Shown piece after piece: positions 1 to 9,200 of a stretch of DNA of 64,000 nucleotides; within the stretch, counting starts at the first letter, position 1; each line of letters opens with the position of its first letter. The notes beneath the pieces are model-generated. The model had not been told where the DNA came from. It worked only from the letters and a program-made list of their open reading frames with translations, and did no database searches. The position numbers and the translations under genes were made by a program. The stretch comes from Ignavibacteriota bacterium. Its GTDB lineage: Bacteria > Bacteroidota > Ignavibacteria > UBA10030 > CAVZMI01. The stretch covers positions 224,001-288,000 of the forward strand of contig CAVZMI010000021.1 of NCBI GenBank assembly GCA_963776275.1. Reading direction: 5' to 3'.

Positions 1-1
1 C

Positions 2-841
2 TTTTATGGTGATCTATTTACAGCAGATGCGCTTCAGACTGCTGTTGGTGATGTCGAATATGTGTATCACCTTGCCGGTGTTGTCGCAGCAAAGAATCGT
101 GATGGATATTTTCGAGGAAATCAGGGAGGAACTCGCAACATTCTTGAAGCAGTCCTTACTGCAAATCCCGGATTAAAAAAATTTATTTTTGTCAGCAGTC
201 TAACAGCCGTTGGTCCCGCACTCGGTGATAATCCGGTAACAGAGGAGACCGTTCCGCACCCGATCACGGCATACGGTGAGAGCAAACTGGCTGCTGAGAG
301 AGAAGTCATGGATCGATGGAGCACAATTCCGGCTGTTATCATTCGTGCGCCGGCAGTCTATGGTCCGCGTGACGTCGGAATCCTGACATTTTTTCAGACG
401 ATCAATAAAGGACTCGAACCGCTAATCGGTTTTCATGAAAAAAAAGCAAGTCTTGTCCATTCAACCGATCTTGTCAATGGTATTATATTGGCTGGTGAGA
501 ATGAAAAAGCGGTTCGTACTTCGTATTTCATCGGAAGTGAGAGAGGTTATACCTGGAGCGAGCTTGGTGCACTGACTTCACGTTTATTGAACAAAAAAAC
601 GATTAAGATCAAAATTCCCCATTGGATTGTTTTCGCGATTGCAGGTATTTCAGGAGTGGTAGGTAATTTGGGTAAGAAACCGCCGATTTTCAATTTCGAA
701 AAAGGAAAAGACATTACAAGGCCGAACTGGACATGCTCGATAGAAAAAGCAAAAAGAGAGTTGGAATATAGACAGACCATAGCGGTCGAACAGGGTTTTT
801 GGGAAACTATTAAGTGGTATAAACAGCAAGGATGGCTTTGA
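2..841 (+). CDS. NAD-dependent epimerase/dehydratase family (extended SDR), 5'-truncated by window edge
   Basis: Frame open from position 2 (FYGDLF...VYHLAG); motifs VSS, YGESK (YxxxK) and RAPAVYGPRD. Confidence 0.85.
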   Translation, partial: FYGDLFTADALQTAVGDVEYVYHLAGVVAAKNRDGYFRGNQGGTRNILEAVLTANPGLKKFIFVSSLTAVGPALGDNPVTEETVPHPITAYGESKLAAEREVMDRWSTIPAVIIRAPAVYGPRDVGILTFFQTINKGLEPLIGFHEKKASLVHSTDLVNGIILAGENEKAVRTSYFIGSERGYTWSELGALTSRLLNKKTIKIKIPHWIVFAIAGISGVVGNLGKKPPIFNFEKGKDITRPNWTCSIEKAKRELEYRQTIAVEQGFWETIKWYKQQGWL

Positions 842-1019
842 AATCTTGATTCTGAGTCCATTTTTAGCTATTTTATATTTTCTTAAGGGCTCAAGAGAGA
901 CGGGAAGGAAAGATAAGATAAAATTAAAAAGGAAAAATTAAAAAGGAAAAATTATTTATAAGAGTGCTTTATTTCTCCCTTTTTTTAATTTTTACTTTTT
1001 ACTTGCTTTTATCATTGAC

Positions 1020-1237
1020 GACCCCGTAGCTCAACAGGATACCTGCCCGCCGACTGCGTCAGCAGGCAGGGGGGGAGCAACAGCCTTCTAAGTCCCATTC
1101 CGACCGAACTTCGTGAACAGATTGAGACGAAGTTCGCAGTCGGAATGAGGATCCCGATTCTTTGAATTTTTAGGGCATATCGGGACTGTAGGTTGCGCGT
1201 TTTCTCCCGCTTTCAGCGAGACGTGAGGCCGGGGTCA
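1020..1237 (+). pseudogene. tRNA-Arg(TCT) copy interrupted by three hairpin insertions
   Basis: Colinear with intact tRNA at 2503-2576: GACCCCGTAGCTCAAC-GGATA [insert 1042-1074] GAGCAACAGCCTTCTAAG [insert 1093-1185] CTGTAGGTTGCGCGTT [1202-1227 replaces CGATTCGC] GCCGGGGTCA. Confidence 0.85.
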
Positions 1238-1283
1238 CAAAGTCAGGAAGTAAAAAGGTAAAATTAAAAAGTAAAAAGTATTT

Positions 1284-2428
1284 TGTATTATTAAGGAGAT
1301 GTGTTTACACACATCAGTTAACTGTTCTTTGAAATGAAGGTCATTGGAAGGACTTCGAGTTGTCGTATACTTGTGTCTGGATAGGACACAAGGACAACCG
1401 GGAGATCTCCAATGACCACAGACGATCTGATCATTAACCAGCGTCGATCGTTATTAATCTACGCTGAACGTCACGGTGTGAGCCAAGCATGCCGTACTTT
1501 TGGGATGAGCCGAACGAGCTTCTACAAAATAAAAGCACAGTTCATCAAAACAGGGTCATTAGCTCCAAAGGTACGACGAAAGCCTAAAATGCCCAATGAG
1601 ATGGCACTGAGCAAGAAAAAACTCTTACTAGAACTCGTCCAAGAACATCCAGCATGGGGACCACGACGATATGCCTATATTTTTCAACAGCAAGGCATTT
1701 CCGTTACTCATGTGGCGCTCTGGTACCACCTAAAGCGTTTTGGTCTGAATCGTCGCTATCAACGATTGGTCTATCTTGAACGTGCTCGTATGGACAACCG
1801 ACCATTGACCGAACAAACGTTACGCGTGATGAAACGTCAGATCAACAAAGTCAATGAAGGACTCTGGCCGGGGCATATTGTCGCTCTAGATACCTTTTAC
1901 GTGGGTCATCTCAAGCGTGTTGGACGAATCTACCAGATCTCTGGTATTGATCTGTGCTCTCGCTATGGCTGGGCAAAACTCTACACTCGTAAAGATCAAT
2001 CAGCAACGATCGATTTGGTCGAAAATGTGCTTATCCCGAAGTTCTACGACAACGGTATCAATCTCGAGTATGTACTGACGGATAATGGCACTGAGTTCAC
2101 CGGCAGTCAATTCCAGCGTATGCTTGCTGCTTATGATATCAAGCACAATCGAATACCCAAAGGCAAGCCGATCCTTAATGGCACCTGTGAACGTTTTCAA
2201 AGAACAATCCTGGAAGAGTTCTATCAACCAATGTTCCGTACTCGATTCTTCAATTCTCTTCCAGAGTTACAACAAGCTCTTGATAAATATTTATGGTATT
2301 ATAATTTTCAACGTGCTCACTTCGGACTAGCTAAAAAAGGGGCTATTCCGATTGATGTATTTAAATCTAAACATAGTGCTTTACGACAACAATTTCAAAA
2401 ACTGTTAACTTGACTCTTTAGCAGTACA
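1284..2428 (+). mobile_element. IS481-family insertion sequence
   Basis: TGT...ACA ends; imperfect terminal IRs (TGTATTATTAAGGAG..TCAGTTAACTGTTCTTTGAAAT vs reverse complement of right end TGTACTGCTAAAGAGTCAAGTTAACAGTTTTTGAAAT); 7-bp direct repeat AGTATTT at 1277-1283 and 2429-2435. Confidence 0.9.
1412..2413 (+). CDS. IS481-family DDE transposase (HTH + rve integrase core)
   Basis: GVSQACRTFGMSRTSFY HTH; PGHIVALDTFYVG, LTDNGTEF and NGTCERFQRTILEEF DDE motifs. Confidence 0.93.
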   Translation: MTTDDLIINQRRSLLIYAERHGVSQACRTFGMSRTSFYKIKAQFIKTGSLAPKVRRKPKMPNEMALSKKKLLLELVQEHPAWGPRRYAYIFQQQGISVTHVALWYHLKRFGLNRRYQRLVYLERARMDNRPLTEQTLRVMKRQINKVNEGLWPGHIVALDTFYVGHLKRVGRIYQISGIDLCSRYGWAKLYTRKDQSATIDLVENVLIPKFYDNGINLEYVLTDNGTEFTGSQFQRMLAAYDIKHNRIPKGKPILNGTCERFQRTILEEFYQPMFRTRFFNSLPELQQALDKYLWYYNFQRAHFGLAKKGAIPIDVFKSKHSALRQQFQKLLT

Positions 2429-2502
2429 AGTATTTATAATAGCGTTCGATTTCTCTCTTTTTAATTTTTACTTTTTAATTTTTACTTGCTTTTATCATTG
2501 AC

Positions 2503-2576
2503 GACCCCGTAGCTCAACTGGATAGAGCAACAGCCTTCTAAGCTGTAGGTTGCGCGTTCGATTCGCGCCGGGGTCA
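2503..2576 (+). tRNA. tRNA-Arg (anticodon TCT)
   Basis: Acceptor GACCCCG/CGGGGTC, anticodon arm ACAGC-CTTCTAA-GCTGT, T-loop TTCGATT; CCA not encoded. Confidence 0.96.
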
Positions 2577-2687
2577 CAGGATTAGGAAGGAAAAATTAAA
2601 AAGTAAAAAGGAAAAAGTATCTGATATGACTTTCAATTTCTTTTACTTTTTAATTTTTACTTTTTCCTTTTTGTTTTATGCTAAGAT

Positions 2688-2762
2688 GGTGACCATAGTT
2701 CAGTTGGTTAGAACGCCAGATTGTGGCTCTGGAGGTCGTGGGTTCAACTCCCACTGGTCACC
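2688..2762 (+). tRNA. tRNA-His (anticodon GTG)
   Basis: G-1 plus acceptor GTGACCA/TGGTCAC, C discriminator, anticodon arm CCAGA-TTGTGGC-TCTGG, T-loop TTCAACT. Confidence 0.96.
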
Positions 2763-2785
2763 CTTGTAAATGGTGAATTGTGAAT

Positions 2786-3030
2786 AGTGAGTAGTGAATG
2801 TTTCTGTGGCTGGTTAAAGGAAAACCATTCACTATGTGTGAGTTAAGTGAGTAGTGAATGTTTCTGTGGCTGGTTAAAGGAAAACCATTCACTATGTGTG
2901 AGTTAAGTGAGTAGTGAATGTTTCTGTGGCTGGTTAAAGGAAAACCATTCACTATGCGTGAGTTAAGTGAGTAGTGAATGTTTCTGTGGCTGGTTAAAGG
3001 AAAACCATTCACTATGCGTGAGTTAAGTGA
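2786..3030 (+). repeat. Tandem repeat, 4 x 60 bp (plus degenerate partial to ~3060), each unit hairpin-forming
   Basis: Unit AGTGAGTAGTGAATGTTTCTGTGGCTGGTTAAAGGAAAACCATTCACTATGYGTGAGTTA; internal IR TAGTGAATG/CATTCACTA. Confidence 0.95.
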
Positions 3031-3126
3031 TTGGATGACTCCTTAAAGGAAAACCATGCGGGGTGTAACCTGTTTTCGTTCTATACTATATAGACCGATC
3101 ATCAGGATTCAATTTTCACACTTCAT

Positions 3127-3495
3127 ATGGGAAATGCTGAGTTTGCTGAGACTTTAAGGTGCAGGACGAAGCGATTTGCCCTTGATATCATCCGACAAAC
3201 CGAAGATATAACAAAATCGGCAACATCAGAGATCATCAGGAAGCAAATAATTCGGTCAGCGACATCCATTGGAGCGAATTATCGATCAGCGTGCCGTTCA
3301 CGCTCCAAAGCCGATTTTATTGCAAAAATCCGGATTGTAGTAGAAGAAACCGACGAGACTTTGTATTGGTTGGAACTCTTGTGCAATTTGAAATTATTGA
3401 GCCCGGAGGAGTATTCACCAATCCATAGAGAAGGTGAGCAACTAATTGCAATCTTCGTAACCTCGATCCAAACAGTGCAACGCTCATTAAAATAA
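3127..3495 (+). CDS. Four-helix-bundle protein (23S rRNA intervening-sequence protein / bAvd-like family)
   Basis: Family signature QIIRSATSIGANYRSACRSRSKADFIAKIRIVVEETDETLYWLELL. Confidence 0.92.
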   Translation: MGNAEFAETLRCRTKRFALDIIRQTEDITKSATSEIIRKQIIRSATSIGANYRSACRSRSKADFIAKIRIVVEETDETLYWLELLCNLKLLSPEEYSPIHREGEQLIAIFVTSIQTVQRSLK

Positions 3496-3559
3496 TAATA
3501 AGGTTTTTTATCGCCATCTAAACATTCACAATTCAGAATTCACTATTCACCATTTACAT

Positions 3560-3632
3560 GTCCCCATCGTCTAGTGGCCTAGGACATCGCCCTTTCACGG
3601 CGGTAACACGAGTTCGACTCTCGTTGGGGACA
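3560..3632 (+). tRNA. tRNA-Glu (anticodon TTC)
   Basis: Acceptor GTCCCCA/TGGGGAC, anticodon arm TCGCC-CTTTCAC-GGCGG, T-loop TTCGACT. Confidence 0.96.
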
Positions 3633-3839
3633 CTTGTAAATTGCGAATTCAGAATTGTGAATGGTGAGTTAAAAGCGTGCATTGAAGGAGTTCGGAAAAT
3701 ACATCAATAGCATTGTAGTCGGGCACATATACAATTCACTTCCGGCAGCGAGTCGGAGGCTGAATTGTGAGTATTGAAGATATCGAAGAACCGGTTCTCT
3801 GTTACAGACTCTTTTTAATCAGAATTTAAATATACCAAT

Positions 3840-6373
3840 TTATTTTCTTCCTACTGTTACTTTCACCTCATATTCCGGTATCACTGAGATTGAATCTACA
3901 CCTGCGATTTGAGTCGATCCCTTAAAATCCGGCAGGCAGGATTTTGGAAGATACAGTGGCGCATCGCTCCGTATCGGAAGTATTTTCAGATCGACTCCCT
4001 TGGAAAATATATCCGGTGTCAGTCGTTTCAACCCAATTTGCCACGTTGTTCCGTTATAAAAATTATCTGTCACTAACCGCGTGCCTCTATATAACCTGCC
4101 AATGTCTCCTGTGTAACCGATATTCAGAAATACCTCGCTGAAATCTGCATCCTCGTTTTTTGTTACTTTCACGAGCCAGATGCCGCATTTGTCAAATACG
4201 GAATCATCCGGCGTGGTTGCCACCACACAGTTGCGCCAATCGACAAATGGTCCCATCTTTACCGGAGATACCGCCTGCGGCTTCCGGATCTGCTCATAGC
4301 TTTTGAATATTTTCTTTTCTTTCACCATTGATGTATAACGACTGAATACTCCATCGGTACCGGACCTTTTTACAGACACGGCAGAGAGACTATGAATTCC
4401 GACCGATGGAAAAAGAGAAAAAGTAAACGCATTCACATCGCGCGAACGTAAACAGATTTTATCCCCATCAGCAAAGACATCAGCGTCCGTCATCAGCAGA
4501 TAATCTTTTCCGTTTACTGGAATTTTCCATGAGTTGCATGCCTGTTGCTGCGAAAAAAGAAAGACACGGACCTTTTTTCCGGATACAGTTGTCAATTCCA
4601 TCGCCGGCGTTGTAGAGGAGCGCATGCCGTCGACGCAGATGAGTTTATCAACATGTGAGATTCTTCCAGTCTGTGATTGTAACGTCTTCACCGTCGATTC
4701 GACAAAGATAAATTCTGCGGCAATACCGGCAGAGCTGATAAAAAAGTAGTTGACCGTCGTTCCATCGTCGATCATGGTGAACGGCTGGGCGGTTGCATAC
4801 AGCAAGCAAGAACCATTAAGGTCCATATTCAGCGGCCAGAAAAAACATGACTGCGACAAAATATCAACCGGTTTTCTGGGAATCATGATAGTTTCCGTGG
4901 GTAACATCACTTTTACCTGGATACCCTTTTGAATCGGCATAGGATAATTGCGAAGATAGTTGTTCACGAAAAGAAATCCGCTGTTACCTGACGTACGCGC
5001 CGAGACACGAAGTGTGGTTGTATCTCGCTGTCCGGAGGGCATGACATCCGGAAGCACTGCTCTCATGGGTGCCAGAATGGATCCAAAGTCCTTAATGAAT
5101 TGGTGAATCACTTTTAATGGACGAAATGAATCGTTTAATTGTCCGTATTCACGCAACGGCGCCTGAAAATCATACGAGACAACCGGCACATCGTTCGGAT
5201 AACCGGTTGCCTGAGATTCCTGAAGAGTGGTTCTCTTGCCATCAGGATTCGACCCTCCGTGATACATGTAATAACCAATAAGATTTACTCCGGAACCAAG
5301 TGCCGTCAATGCAATGGGCGGGATATCTTCCCCAGACACTCTGACTCGGCGATGGTATGTGACCTGCATTCCCGCTCCGAGTTCTGCGGTACACATCGGG
5401 TAATGCCAGAGTTGAACGTCTTCTTCCGAAGTCGAGGCTCCCTGCGTAATTCCCACGTCACTGTTAATCGGGGTTAAATGAAACTGATAGACATGCTGTG
5501 GATCCGGAGGTAATTCTGCTTTGCTTCCGGACCAGGCCTCGTCGGGGTATCCGCCGAACACCGGAATAACGATATGAGGCGGAACCACGGCGTTGTCCCA
5601 GCCCGTAATTGTATAGAGTGGAACGTCAATTCCTGCGCCAACCGCCATGTTTTTGAGTTTTATTATATGAGCCGCCCCGCCAGTCGGCGCGCGATTCGAA
5701 TATTCGTTCTCAAGCTGTATGCCGATGACAGGTCCGCCATCTTTCCATAATAATCCTTTCAATTGCTTTCCAATTTCATGATAGAATTTTTGGGTGTAGG
5801 AGAGATAGAGGGAATCATTCACACGTGTCTGGCATGCATGCAGTAACCAATCAGGTAATCCGCCGTTTCGGACTTCTGCATGAGACCATCGACCGATACG
5901 CGGAAAAACATACAGGCCATGTTTCGCACACAGTCCGACAAATTTACGCAGATTCTTCCGGCCGGGCAGCATTCAAATTGTCCTTCCAACTCTTCATGAT
6001 GGATCCAGATAATGTACGTCGAGACGACTTGTATTCCGCCCGCTTTCATTTTAAGAAGTTCTTCTTCCCAGTACTTCTCCGGAAAACGGGTGTAATGAAA
6101 CTCGCCCATAACCGGCAACCACGGTTTTTTGTCCAGCAGGATATATCGGCTGTTCACAGAGAGTTGATGCCCGGTTGGGGAGATCCCCGCCTTTATGCTT
6201 CCCATTTGGAGATATCCCGTTTCAGGGGGCGATATCGGAGCGCTTGCATCAATTGAAAATATCGTACCGTCGGTTTTATTTGTCTGTGCAAGAAGGCCCG
6301 CGATTGAAAACAGGGTTGAGAACGCGATCATCGCGAGGCAGCGAGATTCTTTGTAGTTGACGAATGGTATCAA
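3840..6373 (-). pseudogene. GH35 beta-galactosidase, frameshifted near 5964-5971 (pseudogene or sequence error)
   Basis: N-part 5819-6373 has signal peptide and GEFHYTR...KMKAGG...YIIWIHHEE; C-part 3840-5972 has GGPVIGIQLENEY, YYMYHGGSNP, SYDFQAPLREYG. Confidence 0.85.
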
Positions 6374-6400
6374 AATTCACCTTGCTCATTGATCGATGTA

Positions 6401-7723
6401 TTATTTTACAATCAGTGTCTTCGCTATTTTTCGATGTATGTTTGTCAATTGGACAAAATATATCCCCGGACTCATCCTGAGGCTTCTTATAGTAATATTA
6501 TCGTTGTTCTGAGCCGTGGTTTCAAATAGTTTTTGTCCATTCACAGTAAATATTTTGATAGAAGTAGGAATGGTTTTATCTTTCAGAGTGATCATAAAAT
6601 TCTGTCCGGCACCGACAGGATTTGGATAGACGCTGACACCATCACTTTCATTGTTATACCCTTGATTTCTTGGTGCATCCTCTTTCACAGATGTCGAAGA
6701 TGAATCGCCACTTTCCAGAAATGCGTCCAGAGCGACAGTCGGTTTCTTGGTCACCGGGCCCCATGCCCCGAGCTTGTAACCCTGCCAGTTATAGCATTCA
6801 GGTTCCCAATATATAACACCTAAACCATTCACCGATTTTGTTTTTTCTATGAGGTTCAGCAGAAAATGATTCGCCGTAACCGGATCATTGTAGAGATATC
6901 CCGTTTCCACAACCATTACCTTAGTTTGATATCTCGCGATCATGTCTTGCATGGTCAGTAATGACATACTATCATCTGTTTGCCATGACAATCCGGCCCA
7001 GTACGGGTACACCGACATTCCAATGATATCCCACGCAGCTCCGTTATTTTTTAAACCGTCGAATATCCTTCTGTACATGCCATCATTATGACCGTCCGAA
7101 AGATGAACAATAACCTGGATTGTGCTGTCGACAGCCTTCATTGCGTTGTAACCACTTTTAATCATGGCAGCAAAATTATCCATATGGGTTGAAGCCCTTC
7201 CATCCTCCCATAACATCCCGTCATTCGTTTCATTTCCAATCTGCACCCACGCCGGTATAACCCCAATTGATTTCAACGTATCGACTACATCATAGGTGTG
7301 ATTATAAATATCCGTAAGGAGTTGTGGAACTGTATGATGCAACCATGCAGCGGGCTTATTTTGTTTGCCGGGATCAGCCCATGTGTCGCTGTAATGAAAA
7401 TCCAGCATGACTTTGAAACCCATACTATCGGCCCGATGCGCCATTGTCGCTACATCTTTTTTCCCGCACCATCCACCCACAGGATTTACCCAAACTCTGA
7501 AACGGAGCGCATTAATCCCCTTCTCCTTCAGGATTGCCATACAATTTTCTTTCACTCCGGAATCGTTATAAAAAACGTAACCGTAAGATTCCATTTGCGA
7601 CAGCCAGCCGATATCGGCACCGTTCGCAAATTGCGCTTTCGCTTCTCTCGGAAAATGCAAACCAAAGAACAGGATAATGAACAACAGAATATTTTTCAGA
7701 AAGAATAATTCGTTTTTCTCCAT
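6401..7723 (-). CDS. GH53 endo-1,4-beta-galactanase with T9SS C-terminal sorting domain
   Basis: GADIGW, RFRVWVNP, DFHYSDTWADPGKQ, VQIGNE, VVETG, YWEPE; CTD VYPNP...GIYFVQL. Confidence 0.93.
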   Translation of the reverse strand: MEKNELFFLKNILLFIILFFGLHFPREAKAQFANGADIGWLSQMESYGYVFYNDSGVKENCMAILKEKGINALRFRVWVNPVGGWCGKKDVATMAHRADSMGFKVMLDFHYSDTWADPGKQNKPAAWLHHTVPQLLTDIYNHTYDVVDTLKSIGVIPAWVQIGNETNDGMLWEDGRASTHMDNFAAMIKSGYNAMKAVDSTIQVIVHLSDGHNDGMYRRIFDGLKNNGAAWDIIGMSVYPYWAGLSWQTDDSMSLLTMQDMIARYQTKVMVVETGYLYNDPVTANHFLLNLIEKTKSVNGLGVIYWEPECYNWQGYKLGAWGPVTKKPTVALDAFLESGDSSSTSVKEDAPRNQGYNNESDGVSVYPNPVGAGQNFMITLKDKTIPTSIKIFTVNGQKLFETTAQNNDNITIRSLRMSPGIYFVQLTNIHRKIAKTLIVK

Positions 7724-7879
7724 GCCTCCCCCTCTATTCTACCAATTGTCGTACTAATTATTTTCTCGTTCTTCAATCAAAAAACATCTTCACAGAGAAT
7801 GCCGAACTTTTTTTCCACCAAAAACAATCTCCATACCGTGATCTGAAGTGTCCATCAATTGTTGTGAAGATCTATAGTA

Positions 7880-8881
7880 TCATGTTGATTCTCTAATGAT
7901 TAATTTTGTCTCAATAATTTGTGTTCTTGATTTCGTTCGTTCTCCGTTGATCATCTCCAGAAGCATTGATCCGGCCTTTTTCCCCATTTCATACGGGAAC
8001 TGATCGATAGTGGTAAGTGTCGGATGAATCATCGATGTGATGACATTATTCGAAAAACCTATTACGGCGATATCATCGGGAATGGTTAAATTCGCTTCCT
8101 TAATTCTTTGGTAAGCCCCTATGGCTACCGGATCATTTACAGCAAAAAGTGCATCTGGAATTAAATTTTTCCGTAGAAGCGCATCCATGGAATTATAACC
8201 GAACGACTCATCCAAATCTCCTGCTACAATAAAATCGTCAATGATCGGAAGATCAGTAACGCGCAGAGCATCGAGATATCCTTCCAGCCTTTTTTGGCAT
8301 ATTTGAAGTGTCATCGGCCCCGCGAAGTGCGCGATTCTTCTCCGACCTTTGTCTATGAGATACTTGACCGCATTAAAAGAACTTTTATAATCGTCAATAA
8401 TAACTTTATCCGTGTCGATATCGTCCCACACACGGTCAAAAAATAAAAGTGATATTTTATGTTTCAATAAATGTCGAAAATGTTCTCCCGACTTTGTGTT
8501 CTGAGAAATAGAGGCGATCACACCAGCGACACGGTGCTGCATAAGGAGATTCGTATTTACAACCTCCCGTTCATAGCTTTCATTTGACTGACAAAGGATG
8601 ATTGTATACCCGGACTTGTAGGCAATCTCTTCTATTCCGCTTATGGCCGATGAAAAAAAATCGTGCCGTATTTCAGGGACGATCACACCAATAGTTTTTG
8701 TGCGATTACTTTTAAGGCTCTGTGCTATGACATTTGGGGCATAATGAAATTGTCGCGCCACATTTCTTACTCTCTCTTTCGTCGAATCTTTGATATCGGG
8801 ATGATCATGGAGTGCCCGAGAGACTGTCGAAGGAGATAACTTAAGCCTCTGTGCAATATCGATTATTGTCTTTTGTTTCAT
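7880..8881 (-). CDS. LacI-family transcriptional regulator
   Basis: TIIDIAQRLKLSPSTVSRAL HTH; PBP-like effector domain (FFDR, NDPVAIG, IPDDIAVIGF). Confidence 0.95.
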   Translation of the reverse strand: MKQKTIIDIAQRLKLSPSTVSRALHDHPDIKDSTKERVRNVARQFHYAPNVIAQSLKSNRTKTIGVIVPEIRHDFFSSAISGIEEIAYKSGYTIILCQSNESYEREVVNTNLLMQHRVAGVIASISQNTKSGEHFRHLLKHKISLLFFDRVWDDIDTDKVIIDDYKSSFNAVKYLIDKGRRRIAHFAGPMTLQICQKRLEGYLDALRVTDLPIIDDFIVAGDLDESFGYNSMDALLRKNLIPDALFAVNDPVAIGAYQRIKEANLTIPDDIAVIGFSNNVITSMIHPTLTTIDQFPYEMGKKAGSMLLEMINGERTKSRTQIIETKLIIREST

Positions 8882-8940
8882 TGTAAATGATGCTCAGAAT
8901 TCTTGACCCTTATTGAAAAGGCTATTACATGAAAAATAGA

Positions 8941-9200
8941 TCATTTCACCAGTATCATTTTTTTTAGGAATTGAAATCAACCACCTCAATCCTGTAAAGA
9001 TAAATCCCGGGAACCAGATTCTCCGCGTCAAATTCCGTCGAATATATGCCCTCGTCGAATTTGACGTTAACCGGAGTTTTGAAGACCTGGCCGAGAATAG
9101 TATACACCACCAATAGTATCTATGGGGTTCTCGGCACGGAAAAATCACTTCGCATTGTGGGATTGAACAGATTCGGAAAGTTCTGTAGTAACGAATACCG
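8941..9200 (-). pseudogene. Decayed stand-alone T9SS type-A sorting-domain remnant
   Basis: Minus strand reads YSLLQNFPNLFNPT...TP*ILLVVYTILGQ...GIYLYRI..NS*, then shifted KMILVK*. Confidence 0.7.

Follow-up and report, generated by a model that had tools for sequence, protein, structure and literature searches.

A dead duplicate of the tRNA-Arg(UCU) gene in an Ignavibacteriota genome probably serves as a safe landing site for palindromic DNA elements that are specific to sites in tRNA genes; we give this reading a probability of about 0.7. The reading is built on the anatomy of the duplicate, the families to which its hairpins belong, their specificity for tRNA sites, intermediate states in relatives and compensatory changes in the hairpin stems, all of which were observed. 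tRNA genes are among the most conserved sequences of any genome, which makes them ideal targets for elements that need one landing site in every host. To our knowledge, the agents so far described as targeting tRNA genes are integrases and, in phages, a few homing nucleases. In many Ignavibacteria, tiny hairpin elements that carry no gene occupy set positions within spare tRNA copies; judging from their sequences, such elements appear to mark spare tRNA copies across this group of soil and sediment bacteria. Working out their mechanism might lead to a new DNA enzyme specific for a site or a structure, and might account for the tolerance of essential single-copy genes to invasion, namely through a coupling of invasion to duplication.

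Anatomy of the tRNA-Arg duplicate

We refer to the whole 64,000-nt stretch of DNA that was analysed as the window, and coordinates are positions in it. Alignment of 960-1300 against 2440-2640, together with segment mapping, places a full-length second copy of tRNA-Arg(TCT) at 1020-1238 (Table 1). An earlier note on this DNA had described a duplicate with three insertions whose retained segments differ from the intact gene at one position, and the alignment agrees: 66 of the 67 retained bases are identical to the live gene at 2503-2577, the one difference being a T-to-A change in the D loop. The inserts, denoted A, B and C, comprise 33 nt in the D loop, 93 nt between G39 and C40, and 26 nt in exchange for eight nucleotides of T loop and T stem. 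The hairpins that had been described in them were found again. The inverted-repeat scan recovers the arms 1042-1054/1058-1070 in insert A (13 nt, 85% complementary) and, in insert B, the perfect arms 1096-1104/1139-1147 (9 nt), 1105-1114/1127-1136 (10 nt) and 1152-1158/1179-1185 (7 nt). The T-arm hairpin of insert C was seen by eye and has a 2-nt bulge.

Table 1 Features of the tRNA-Arg(TCT) locus. Positions are those of the window. Column Evidence denotes the comparison or scan on which the row is based.
Feature	Position	Strand	Evidence
Duplicated upstream flank: T-rich heptamer-repeat arm and 25 nt 5' of the gene	950-1019	+	matches 2433-2502
Pseudo-tRNA-Arg positions 1-22: acceptor 5' strand, D stem, D loop to GGATA	1020-1041	+	21/22 identical to 2503-2524
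Insert A: GC-rich D-loop hairpin after GGATA, 33 nt	1042-1074	+	8 further genomes in the order share the junction and a related hairpin start
Pseudo-tRNA-Arg positions 23-40: D stem 3' strand, anticodon stem and loop with TCT, G39	1075-1092	+	18/18 identical
Insert B, hairpin 1: conserved outer stem TCCCATTCCGAC/GTCGGAATGAGGA around variable inner stem	1093-1151	+	pattern and inverted-repeat scan
Insert B, hairpin 2: TCCCGAT...ATCGGGA	1152-1185	+	inverted-repeat scan
Pseudo-tRNA-Arg positions 41-56: anticodon stem 3' strand, variable loop, T stem 5' strand	1186-1201	+	16/16 identical
Insert C: small bulged hairpin, 26 nt for 8 nt of T loop and T stem	1202-1227	+	alignment, segment mapping
Pseudo-tRNA-Arg positions 65-75: acceptor 3' strand and discriminator	1228-1238	+	11/11 identical
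Duplicated downstream flank: A-rich heptamer-repeat arm	1239-1283	+	34/46 identical to 2578-2623
Insertion sequence with rve-integrase transposase ORF (1412-2413)	1284-2432 (about)	+	Pfam rve, rve_3, HTH
Upstream flank of intact gene	2433-2502	+	flank alignment
Intact tRNA-Arg(TCT)	2503-2577	+	ARAGORN; Rfam 71.3 bits

The duplication extends beyond the gene. The earlier note had put the upstream match at about 25 bp, and these last nucleotides do match at 24 of 25 positions, but the match reaches further, to about 70 nt in front of the gene (57 matches, 8 mismatches, 10 gap columns), and 46 nt behind it are duplicated as well. Whereas the tRNA-derived segments are 66/67 identical to the live gene, the flanks are just about 74-88% identical. 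The heptamer-repeat type of flank is common in the source genome and its relatives. The dead and the live tRNA-Arg are separated by an insertion sequence, presumably of the IS481 family, which has three more copies in the genome at 98-99% identity and whose rve transposase ORF is the only ORF between both copies.

In the window, ARAGORN together with Rfam at its gathering score gives the tRNA genes Arg(TCT) at 2503-2577, His at 2689 and Glu at 3560. At 1020-1237 no tRNA was called by ARAGORN and none by Rfam RF00005 at gathering score. The earlier note had proposed a comparison with RF00005, and the copy is left unmatched by it even at E up to 10: a permissive scan of 900-1350 at this threshold returned 12 weak matches, none to tRNA and none to an intron family. 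Because there is no call by either program and eight nucleotides of the T arm are gone, we read the copy as dead as a tRNA, and the best reading of 1020-1237 is a non-functional tandem duplicate of tRNA-Arg(UCU). The tRNA set of the source genome is that of a normal bacterium and counts 46 genes, with one intact Arg(TCT) only.

The hairpin-bearing duplicate at this locus is specific to the lineage. In a genome of the same genus (G001), the upstream epimerase gene directly adjoins the intact tRNA, with neither pseudo-copy nor insertion sequence. A 94%-identical contig from a peat metagenome joins window position 931 to 2503, again with neither of the two, and the contigs of the 94%-identical relative in a peat metagenome run (share 0.11) leave 1035-2444 uncovered.

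Hairpin families and their places in tRNA genes

Judged by its sequence pattern, insert B is a complete double-hairpin module, of a type restricted to Ignavibacteria in the genomes searched. The module consists of an outer stem TCCCRTYCCGAC/GTCGGRANGNGGA, a variable self-complementary inner stem, two unpaired bases and a hairpin TCC...GGA; its 25 distinct instances start with TCCC and end with GGA. Window 1093-1185 fits the pattern. A strict version of it was found in 23 stretches among one genome each of 185,579 species, and 22 of them are in genomes titled Ignavibacteria, Ignavibacteriota, Ignavibacteriales or Bacteroidota. The remaining stretch, in Streptomyces, is a probable chance match. 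A tRNA gene lies within about 200 nt of 14 of the 22 Ignavibacteria-type stretches, and the viral contigs gave no match to the module pattern. With a looser pattern for hairpin 1, matches were obtained in 51 of 277 genomes of the order at 1-8 copies each, and none with the reversed control. Hairpin 1 of insert B is 83% identical to a copy within the pseudo-tRNA-His of a genome of the same family. Module copy numbers are low and the whole inserts are unique in the source genome, with no sign of a recent burst.

The fold of the module appears to be maintained. The inner segment of insert B folds better than 200/200 shuffles, and in total 20 of the 25 distinct instances have inner segments that beat all 200 of theirs. 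Among six inner stems of 23 nt, four of the nine pairs have changed on both sides, and the 54 cells contain no mispair and one G-T wobble. These compensatory changes suggest that the module hairpin is kept either by selection or by its mode of copying.

The module occupies recurrent places in copies of different tRNA species. It lies between ..AAG and CTG.., that is between G39 and C40, in copies of Arg-TCT (this window, G017 and L066), Gly-CCC and Gly-TCC; in the window the junction reads ..CTAAG before the module and CTGTAGG.. after it, with the intact tRNA copy nearby. In tRNA-Pro copies the module follows GCGCAG of the D loop, and in one tRNA-His copy it follows GGTTAG. In six stretches it lies antisense between ..TCGAA or ..TTGAA and CC.., which by eye is the T arm on the other strand. 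In three module stretches no tRNA was called within 8 kb and no tRNA-like flanks were seen. The orientation of the module thus depends on the site and includes the antisense of the tRNA, which argues for an element acting at the level of DNA and not for an RNA motif. No target-site duplication was visible at the three insert junctions of the Arg copy in the window, where the tRNA sequence runs on without duplicated bases.

The other two inserts can be related to families as well. A D-loop insert after GGATA was found at 11 places in 10 of the 277 genomes of the order (reversed control 0), and at 8 of the 11 places it starts with CC[C/T]GCC[C/T]G. By its sequence, insert A seems to be a degenerate member of this family of D-loop hairpins. 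In the T loop of the copy in G017, a genome of another family, the insert is by eye a complete antisense module, and insert C therefore looks like the remnant of one, which it probably is.

We mapped 11 pseudo-tRNA-Arg copies onto their intact neighbours, the copy of this window (G000) included. An insert is present between positions 22 and 23 in 9 of them, between positions 40 and 41 in three (G000, G017 and L066), after position 37 in two (G034 and G038) and in the T loop in three (G000, G017 and G188). Stepwise states, which the earlier note had proposed to look for in relatives, do exist: one insert in G108, G161 and G261, two in G034, G038, L066 and G188, and three in G000, G017 and G019. 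Inserts unique in the genome, together with relatives lacking such states, had been named as evidence against a landing pad; the inserts are indeed unique in the genome, but the relatives do have the intermediates. Most of the 11 copies end early (after position 31, 34, 37, 52 or 67), without the 3' acceptor strand, and every one of them has an intact copy of the target gene alongside. In G017 an intact tRNA-Arg lies within the insert between positions 40 and 41, bracketed by a 20-nt inverted repeat, and the 3' half of the pseudo-copy resumes past the enclosed gene.

The idea of a redundant tRNA as a landing pad therefore stands in so far as hairpin families recur at the same tRNA positions and in stepwise states. 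As for the structure targeting that had been part of it, the insert junctions share a short sequence (..AAG before and CTG.. after the insert, or ..GAA and CCTGG..) as well as a structural position, and either may be what is targeted. No insertion event at an otherwise identical site was caught among the loci compared. In G038, G019 and G108 the segment adjacent to the hairpin differs from the intact neighbour in an anticodon-stem allele; these differences, which are of single bases only, weakly hint that the hairpins may arrive together with flanking tRNA sequence by recombination.

Similar debris is found at other tRNA genes of the source genome. In a blastn-short search (at least 13 nt, at least 92% identity, outside annotated tRNAs), 18 of the 46 tRNA genes are accompanied by partial copies of their own sequence at most 3 kb away, so that close to 40% of the tRNA loci bear such debris, and every partial copy listed shares the strand of its parent. 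At the loci inspected (Pro-GGG, Pro-TGG, Ser-GGA, Ser-CGA, Met, Val-TAC, Val-CAC, Thr-CGT and Ser-GCT), the fragments are broken mostly in the D loop or T loop by GC-rich TCC...GGA hairpins. The Ser-GGA copy extends to the T arm and, with inserts in both D loop and T loop, resembles the Arg copy. Searched by BLAST at full length in their own genome, inserts A, B and C gave self-matches only, and other matches were of at most 21 nt. The 12-mer CCTGCCCGCCGA of insert A has 9 occurrences, most of them in a separate GC-rich repeat family whose hairpin differs.

Mini GIY-YIG genes and related systems

Besides UvrC, the source genome has 13 small ORFs matching PF01541 (GIY-YIG), and one weak PF01541 match is found in a 321-residue frame beside tRNA-Val(TAC). 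Five of 10 mini GIY-YIG loci, with four tandem copies taken as one locus, are within 600 nt of a tRNA; the mean for random placement is 0.14, and none of 20,000 placements reaches five. The usual order at the loci near a tRNA is a pseudo-5' part with hairpins, the ORF, the intact tRNA and a pseudo-3' part with hairpins. Four tandem units, each of a nuclease gene and a pseudo-tRNA-Met, are also present. In G188 and G261 a GIY-YIG ORF lies between the hairpin-bearing pseudo-tRNA-Arg and the intact gene. The closest solved structures to the mini GIY-YIG proteins are UPF0213 proteins and the structure-specific nuclease SLX1, and ten of the ORFs gave weak sub-threshold NCBIfam matches only, to a group I intron endonuclease model.

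The tie between the module and these nucleases is a loose one. No GIY-YIG ORF is present at the studied tRNA-Arg locus and none in the 23 stretches with a module, each up to 8 kb long. G001 has 10 PF01541 matches and no module, and of the 51 genomes that bear the module, 6 have just one PF01541 match each, for example G094, which is 98% complete and has three good modules.

Single-domain GIY-YIG nucleases of the Ssn family, as presented in the part of the source available to us, cut single-stranded DNA beside the NTS/SRM hairpin repeats, and the nuclease gene is often flanked by such repeats (Chenal et al. 2025, PMC11893778). The loci described here are similar in that they encode single-domain GIY-YIG proteins, about 70-100 residues long, beside short GC hairpins, and the NTS palindrome as given in that text is similar to the core of hairpin 2 (TCCCGC...GCGGGA) (PMC11893778). 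The published SRM motif is not enriched, with 6 matches in the genome and 16-21 in block shuffles; none of the matches falls in the pseudo-tRNA region (C21:224900-226700) or within 1 kb of the 10 GIY-YIG loci. Unlike the hairpins borne by tRNA copies here, those of the Ssn system are presented with no mention of tRNA in the available text of the paper (PMC11893778). SegB of phage T4, according to the portion of its description at hand, is a free-standing GIY-YIG homing endonuclease in a tRNA gene cluster that promotes the inheritance of its own region (PMC2330249). It is alike in being encoded among tRNA genes; it differs, as far as that portion goes, in being a phage protein with neither hairpin module nor hairpin-plugged pseudo-tRNA, and the studied locus differs in having no nuclease gene (PMC2330249). 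In the full-text literature searched, hairpin-plugged pseudo-tRNAs or tRNA-nested mini GIY-YIG cassettes in bacteria were not found, and the supplements of the Ssn paper might list tRNA-adjacent homologues. The tRNA-site-specific hairpin habit, of which the Arg copy is a well-preserved case, is lineage-wide and apparently undescribed.

Proposed origin and alternatives

In the explanation that we favour, small palindromic DNA elements would recognise particular places in tRNA genes and would have settled in the spare copy at three sites, namely the D loop after GGATA, the anticodon stem between G39 and C40, and the T loop. The spare copy could receive them because it is dispensable, the intact copy 1.3 kb downstream doing the work. 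The insertion sequence would have landed later, between both copies. We infer that the hairpin elements act as DNA and not as RNA. Their spread may be by site-specific insertion or by recombination that imports flanking tRNA segments, and they may persist only beside a second intact copy. This second copy might derive from local duplication between the heptamer-repeat arms or from a cassette with a tRNA of its own. A mini GIY-YIG nuclease from some of the loci described above may supply the enzyme; this is the weakest point of what we infer.

The main point that this explanation leaves unexplained is that a neutral dead copy should decay as fast as its flanks. The tRNA parts may owe their preservation to gene conversion from the live copy, to a very recent origin, to repeat flanks that mutate fast, or to selection on an RNA. 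Also counting against a dead copy are the cloverleaf-like fold that is predicted should it be transcribed, and the co-duplication of the upstream flank. The low module copy numbers, the uniqueness of the whole inserts in the genome and the loose tie to the nucleases also weigh against the favoured explanation, as does the finding of no insertion event at an otherwise identical site.

A further step would be to regard the modules, with or without a mini GIY-YIG gene, as undescribed selfish DNA specific for tRNA genes, which would enter at a defined position and survive by means of a tRNA copy that it brought or created. We put this forward tentatively, as possible and not as probable. It fits the nested layout of G017, the tandem arrays of pseudo-copies and the four nuclease-plus-pseudo-tRNA-Met units. 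If true, the elements could spread between genomes by recombination through universally conserved tRNA sequence, and the pseudo-tRNA-Arg with three inserts would be a fossil record of three invasions.

The inserts may alternatively be REP- or MITE-like elements moved by a transposase, of Y1 (IS200/RAYT) type or other, with the GIY-YIG genes as unrelated neighbours. REPs, as described in the part of the source at hand, are short non-coding inverted-repeat elements tagged by GTAG or CGTC that can nest (PMC3733652). Compared with REP, REPIN and MITE elements as described there, the module is alike in its inverted-repeat ends, the compensatory upkeep of a constrained hairpin, several diverged copies per genome and nesting (PMC3733652). 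The source genome has 9 matches to the Y1 transposase family PF01797, and the missing tight linkage to GIY-YIG genes would also agree. However, none of six inspected Y1 loci is flanked by TCCC...GGGA hairpins, and we rejected Y1 transposases as the mobilising enzyme; the one Y1 locus that does have clear flanking hairpins has them of unrelated sequence and in 4 copies. The module ends show, by eye, neither a GTAG nor a CGTC tag, and, going by that available description, the module differs from REPs and REPINs with a RAYT in this and in the lack of a flanking Y1 transposase. It differs further in lying at fixed positions inside tRNA copies instead of between genes, and at 1-8 copies per genome it is far below typical REP families in number. 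With inverted ends and no visible target-site duplication at the three junctions, it is also unlike a MITE. We consider this alternative unlikely.

The landing-site explanation also has to be weighed against a functional RNA derived from tRNA-Arg, such as a decoy, a scaffold or a processing element, in which the hairpins would be selected extensions of the arms. The good preservation of the tRNA parts beside diverged flanks is what such an RNA would predict, and the compensatory changes that keep the stems, together with the recurrence of the three insertion places in G017 of another family, are in line with it. The region is predicted to fold, if transcribed, as a cloverleaf whose arms are extended (-98.3 kcal/mol, z = -5.3) and which retains the acceptor, D, anticodon and T helices. 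A sigma-70 scan, which is blind to other promoter types, gave 5 promoter-like sites for 3.7 expected, the terminator scan gave none, and these counts are uninformative. But the pseudo-copies end at differing points, so no common RNA is conserved, and the module is antisense to the tRNA at the T-loop sites. It is likewise found in copies of other tRNA species and in the three stretches with no tRNA called in 8 kb. The copy itself is absent from G001 and from the 94%-identical metagenome contig, and it matches no Rfam family. The new structured RNA that the earlier note had offered as its alternative is thus not supported, and we give a functional RNA little credence.

tRNA-Arg(TCT) is a classic integration target, and the copy could be a scar of repeated integration and excision of integrase islands at this attachment site. 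Borders of such islands consist of displaced 3' tRNA fragments that bound kilobases of cargo and an integrase, with the intact tRNA adjoining, and partial tRNA duplicates beside an intact tRNA are indeed common to both. In G034 the ORF after the intact gene resembles by eye a tyrosine integrase, and in G038 a tRNA-Leu is followed by a duplicated 3' end. The Arg copy, however, is not a displaced 3' fragment: it is full length, with the 5' half and the upstream flank, and its inserts are hairpins of 26-93 nt, conserved repeat modules that recur in other tRNA species. No integrase was found in window 1-9000. An integrase scar is therefore very improbable. An error in assembling this metagenome-derived genome is hardly credible as the source of the locus: the assembly (3.7 Mb in 38 contigs) is estimated at 96% complete with 5.3% contamination and the only run found holds the relative without the copy, but the copy sits within a 331-kb contig and the same design is present in the independent assemblies G017, G034, G038, G019, G108, G161, G188, G261 and L066.

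Hairpin-bearing tRNA copies can confuse tRNA annotation, and ARAGORN called a false tRNA inside the pseudo-copy of G108. One gene of the window carries a Por_Secre_tail sorting domain, in keeping with an Ignavibacteria-type member of the Bacteroidota.

tRNA-Arg pseudo-copies in the window and in relatives

The probably dead, hairpin-bearing duplicate of tRNA-Arg(TCT) in the window carries a hairpin insert in its D loop (insert A) and a double-hairpin module (insert B). Nine nucleotides of insert A (1050-1058) are perfectly complementary to positions 1135-1143 in the 3' arm of the first hairpin of insert B, and the CCGAC/GTCGG motif is common to both segments.

Such pseudo-copies are also found in related genomes of the same order. 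In G017, the anticodon-stem insert of the pseudo-copy (stretch L051, 1501-1938) contains its own intact tRNA-Arg, which is clamped by a 20-nt inverted repeat. In G108, ARAGORN called a false tRNA-Arg that takes the hairpin of the pseudo-copy as an arm; hairpin-bearing pseudo-copies can thus mislead tRNA annotation. Since an integrase-like ORF adjoins the intact tRNA-Arg(TCT) in G034, beginning about 60 nt past it, this gene may also serve as an ordinary attachment site for islands. Locations of these and the other features are given in the table.

Location and description of features at the tRNA-Arg loci and elsewhere in the source genome (G000)
Feature	Location	Strand	Description
Heptamer-repeat arms	Window 900-1019, 1239-1283, 2433-2502, 2578-2688		Beside tRNA genes
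PF05635 gene	Window 3127-3495		23S rRNA intervening-sequence protein, four-helix bundle; between tRNA-His and tRNA-Glu
False tRNA-Arg (ARAGORN)	L047 (G108) 1523-1595	minus	Inside hairpin-bearing pseudo-copy
ORF	L046 (G034) from about 1810	minus	Tyrosine integrase-like by eye
Four tandem 349-nt units	G000 contig C10:40586-42065		After intact tRNA-Met
Two mini GIY-YIG genes	G000 contigs C22:3300-4240 and C26:28985-29900		Near-identical; not at tRNA genes
Y1 transposase ORF	G000 contig C28:53520-54190		IS200-type; one in-frame TAG

Heptamer repeats around the tRNA genes

At this locus, heptamer repeats flank every tRNA gene on both sides: the upstream arm is rich in T, and the downstream arm, rich in A and complementary to it, has AAAAAGT/AAAAATT/AAAAAGG units. 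The AAAAAGT-type repeat is widespread, with 25 matches in the source genome and others in relatives, and copies of the rve-transposase insertion sequence are located within or next to it. Repeats of the GTGAATN heptamer type adjoin the PF05635 gene. By eye, an ORF resembling this gene comes after the tRNA-Arg locus of G017.

Mini GIY-YIG and Y1 transposase genes

In each unit of the tandem array on C10, a tRNA-Met copy comes after a mini GIY-YIG ORF, and a 15-nt hairpin replaces the D loop of this copy; the last tRNA-Met copy additionally has a T-arm hairpin. The C22 and C26 mini GIY-YIG genes are bordered by a different repeat family, whose units begin with GCCAGGTTGCCGAGCG and end with CGAGTCGAGGCAACC, some of them having a TCCCGTCCCG hairpin. 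The Y1 ORF has a 20-nt hairpin on either side, present in 4 copies on contig C28, and the locus appears to be an IS200/IS605-type element that has no relation to the hairpins of the tRNA copies.
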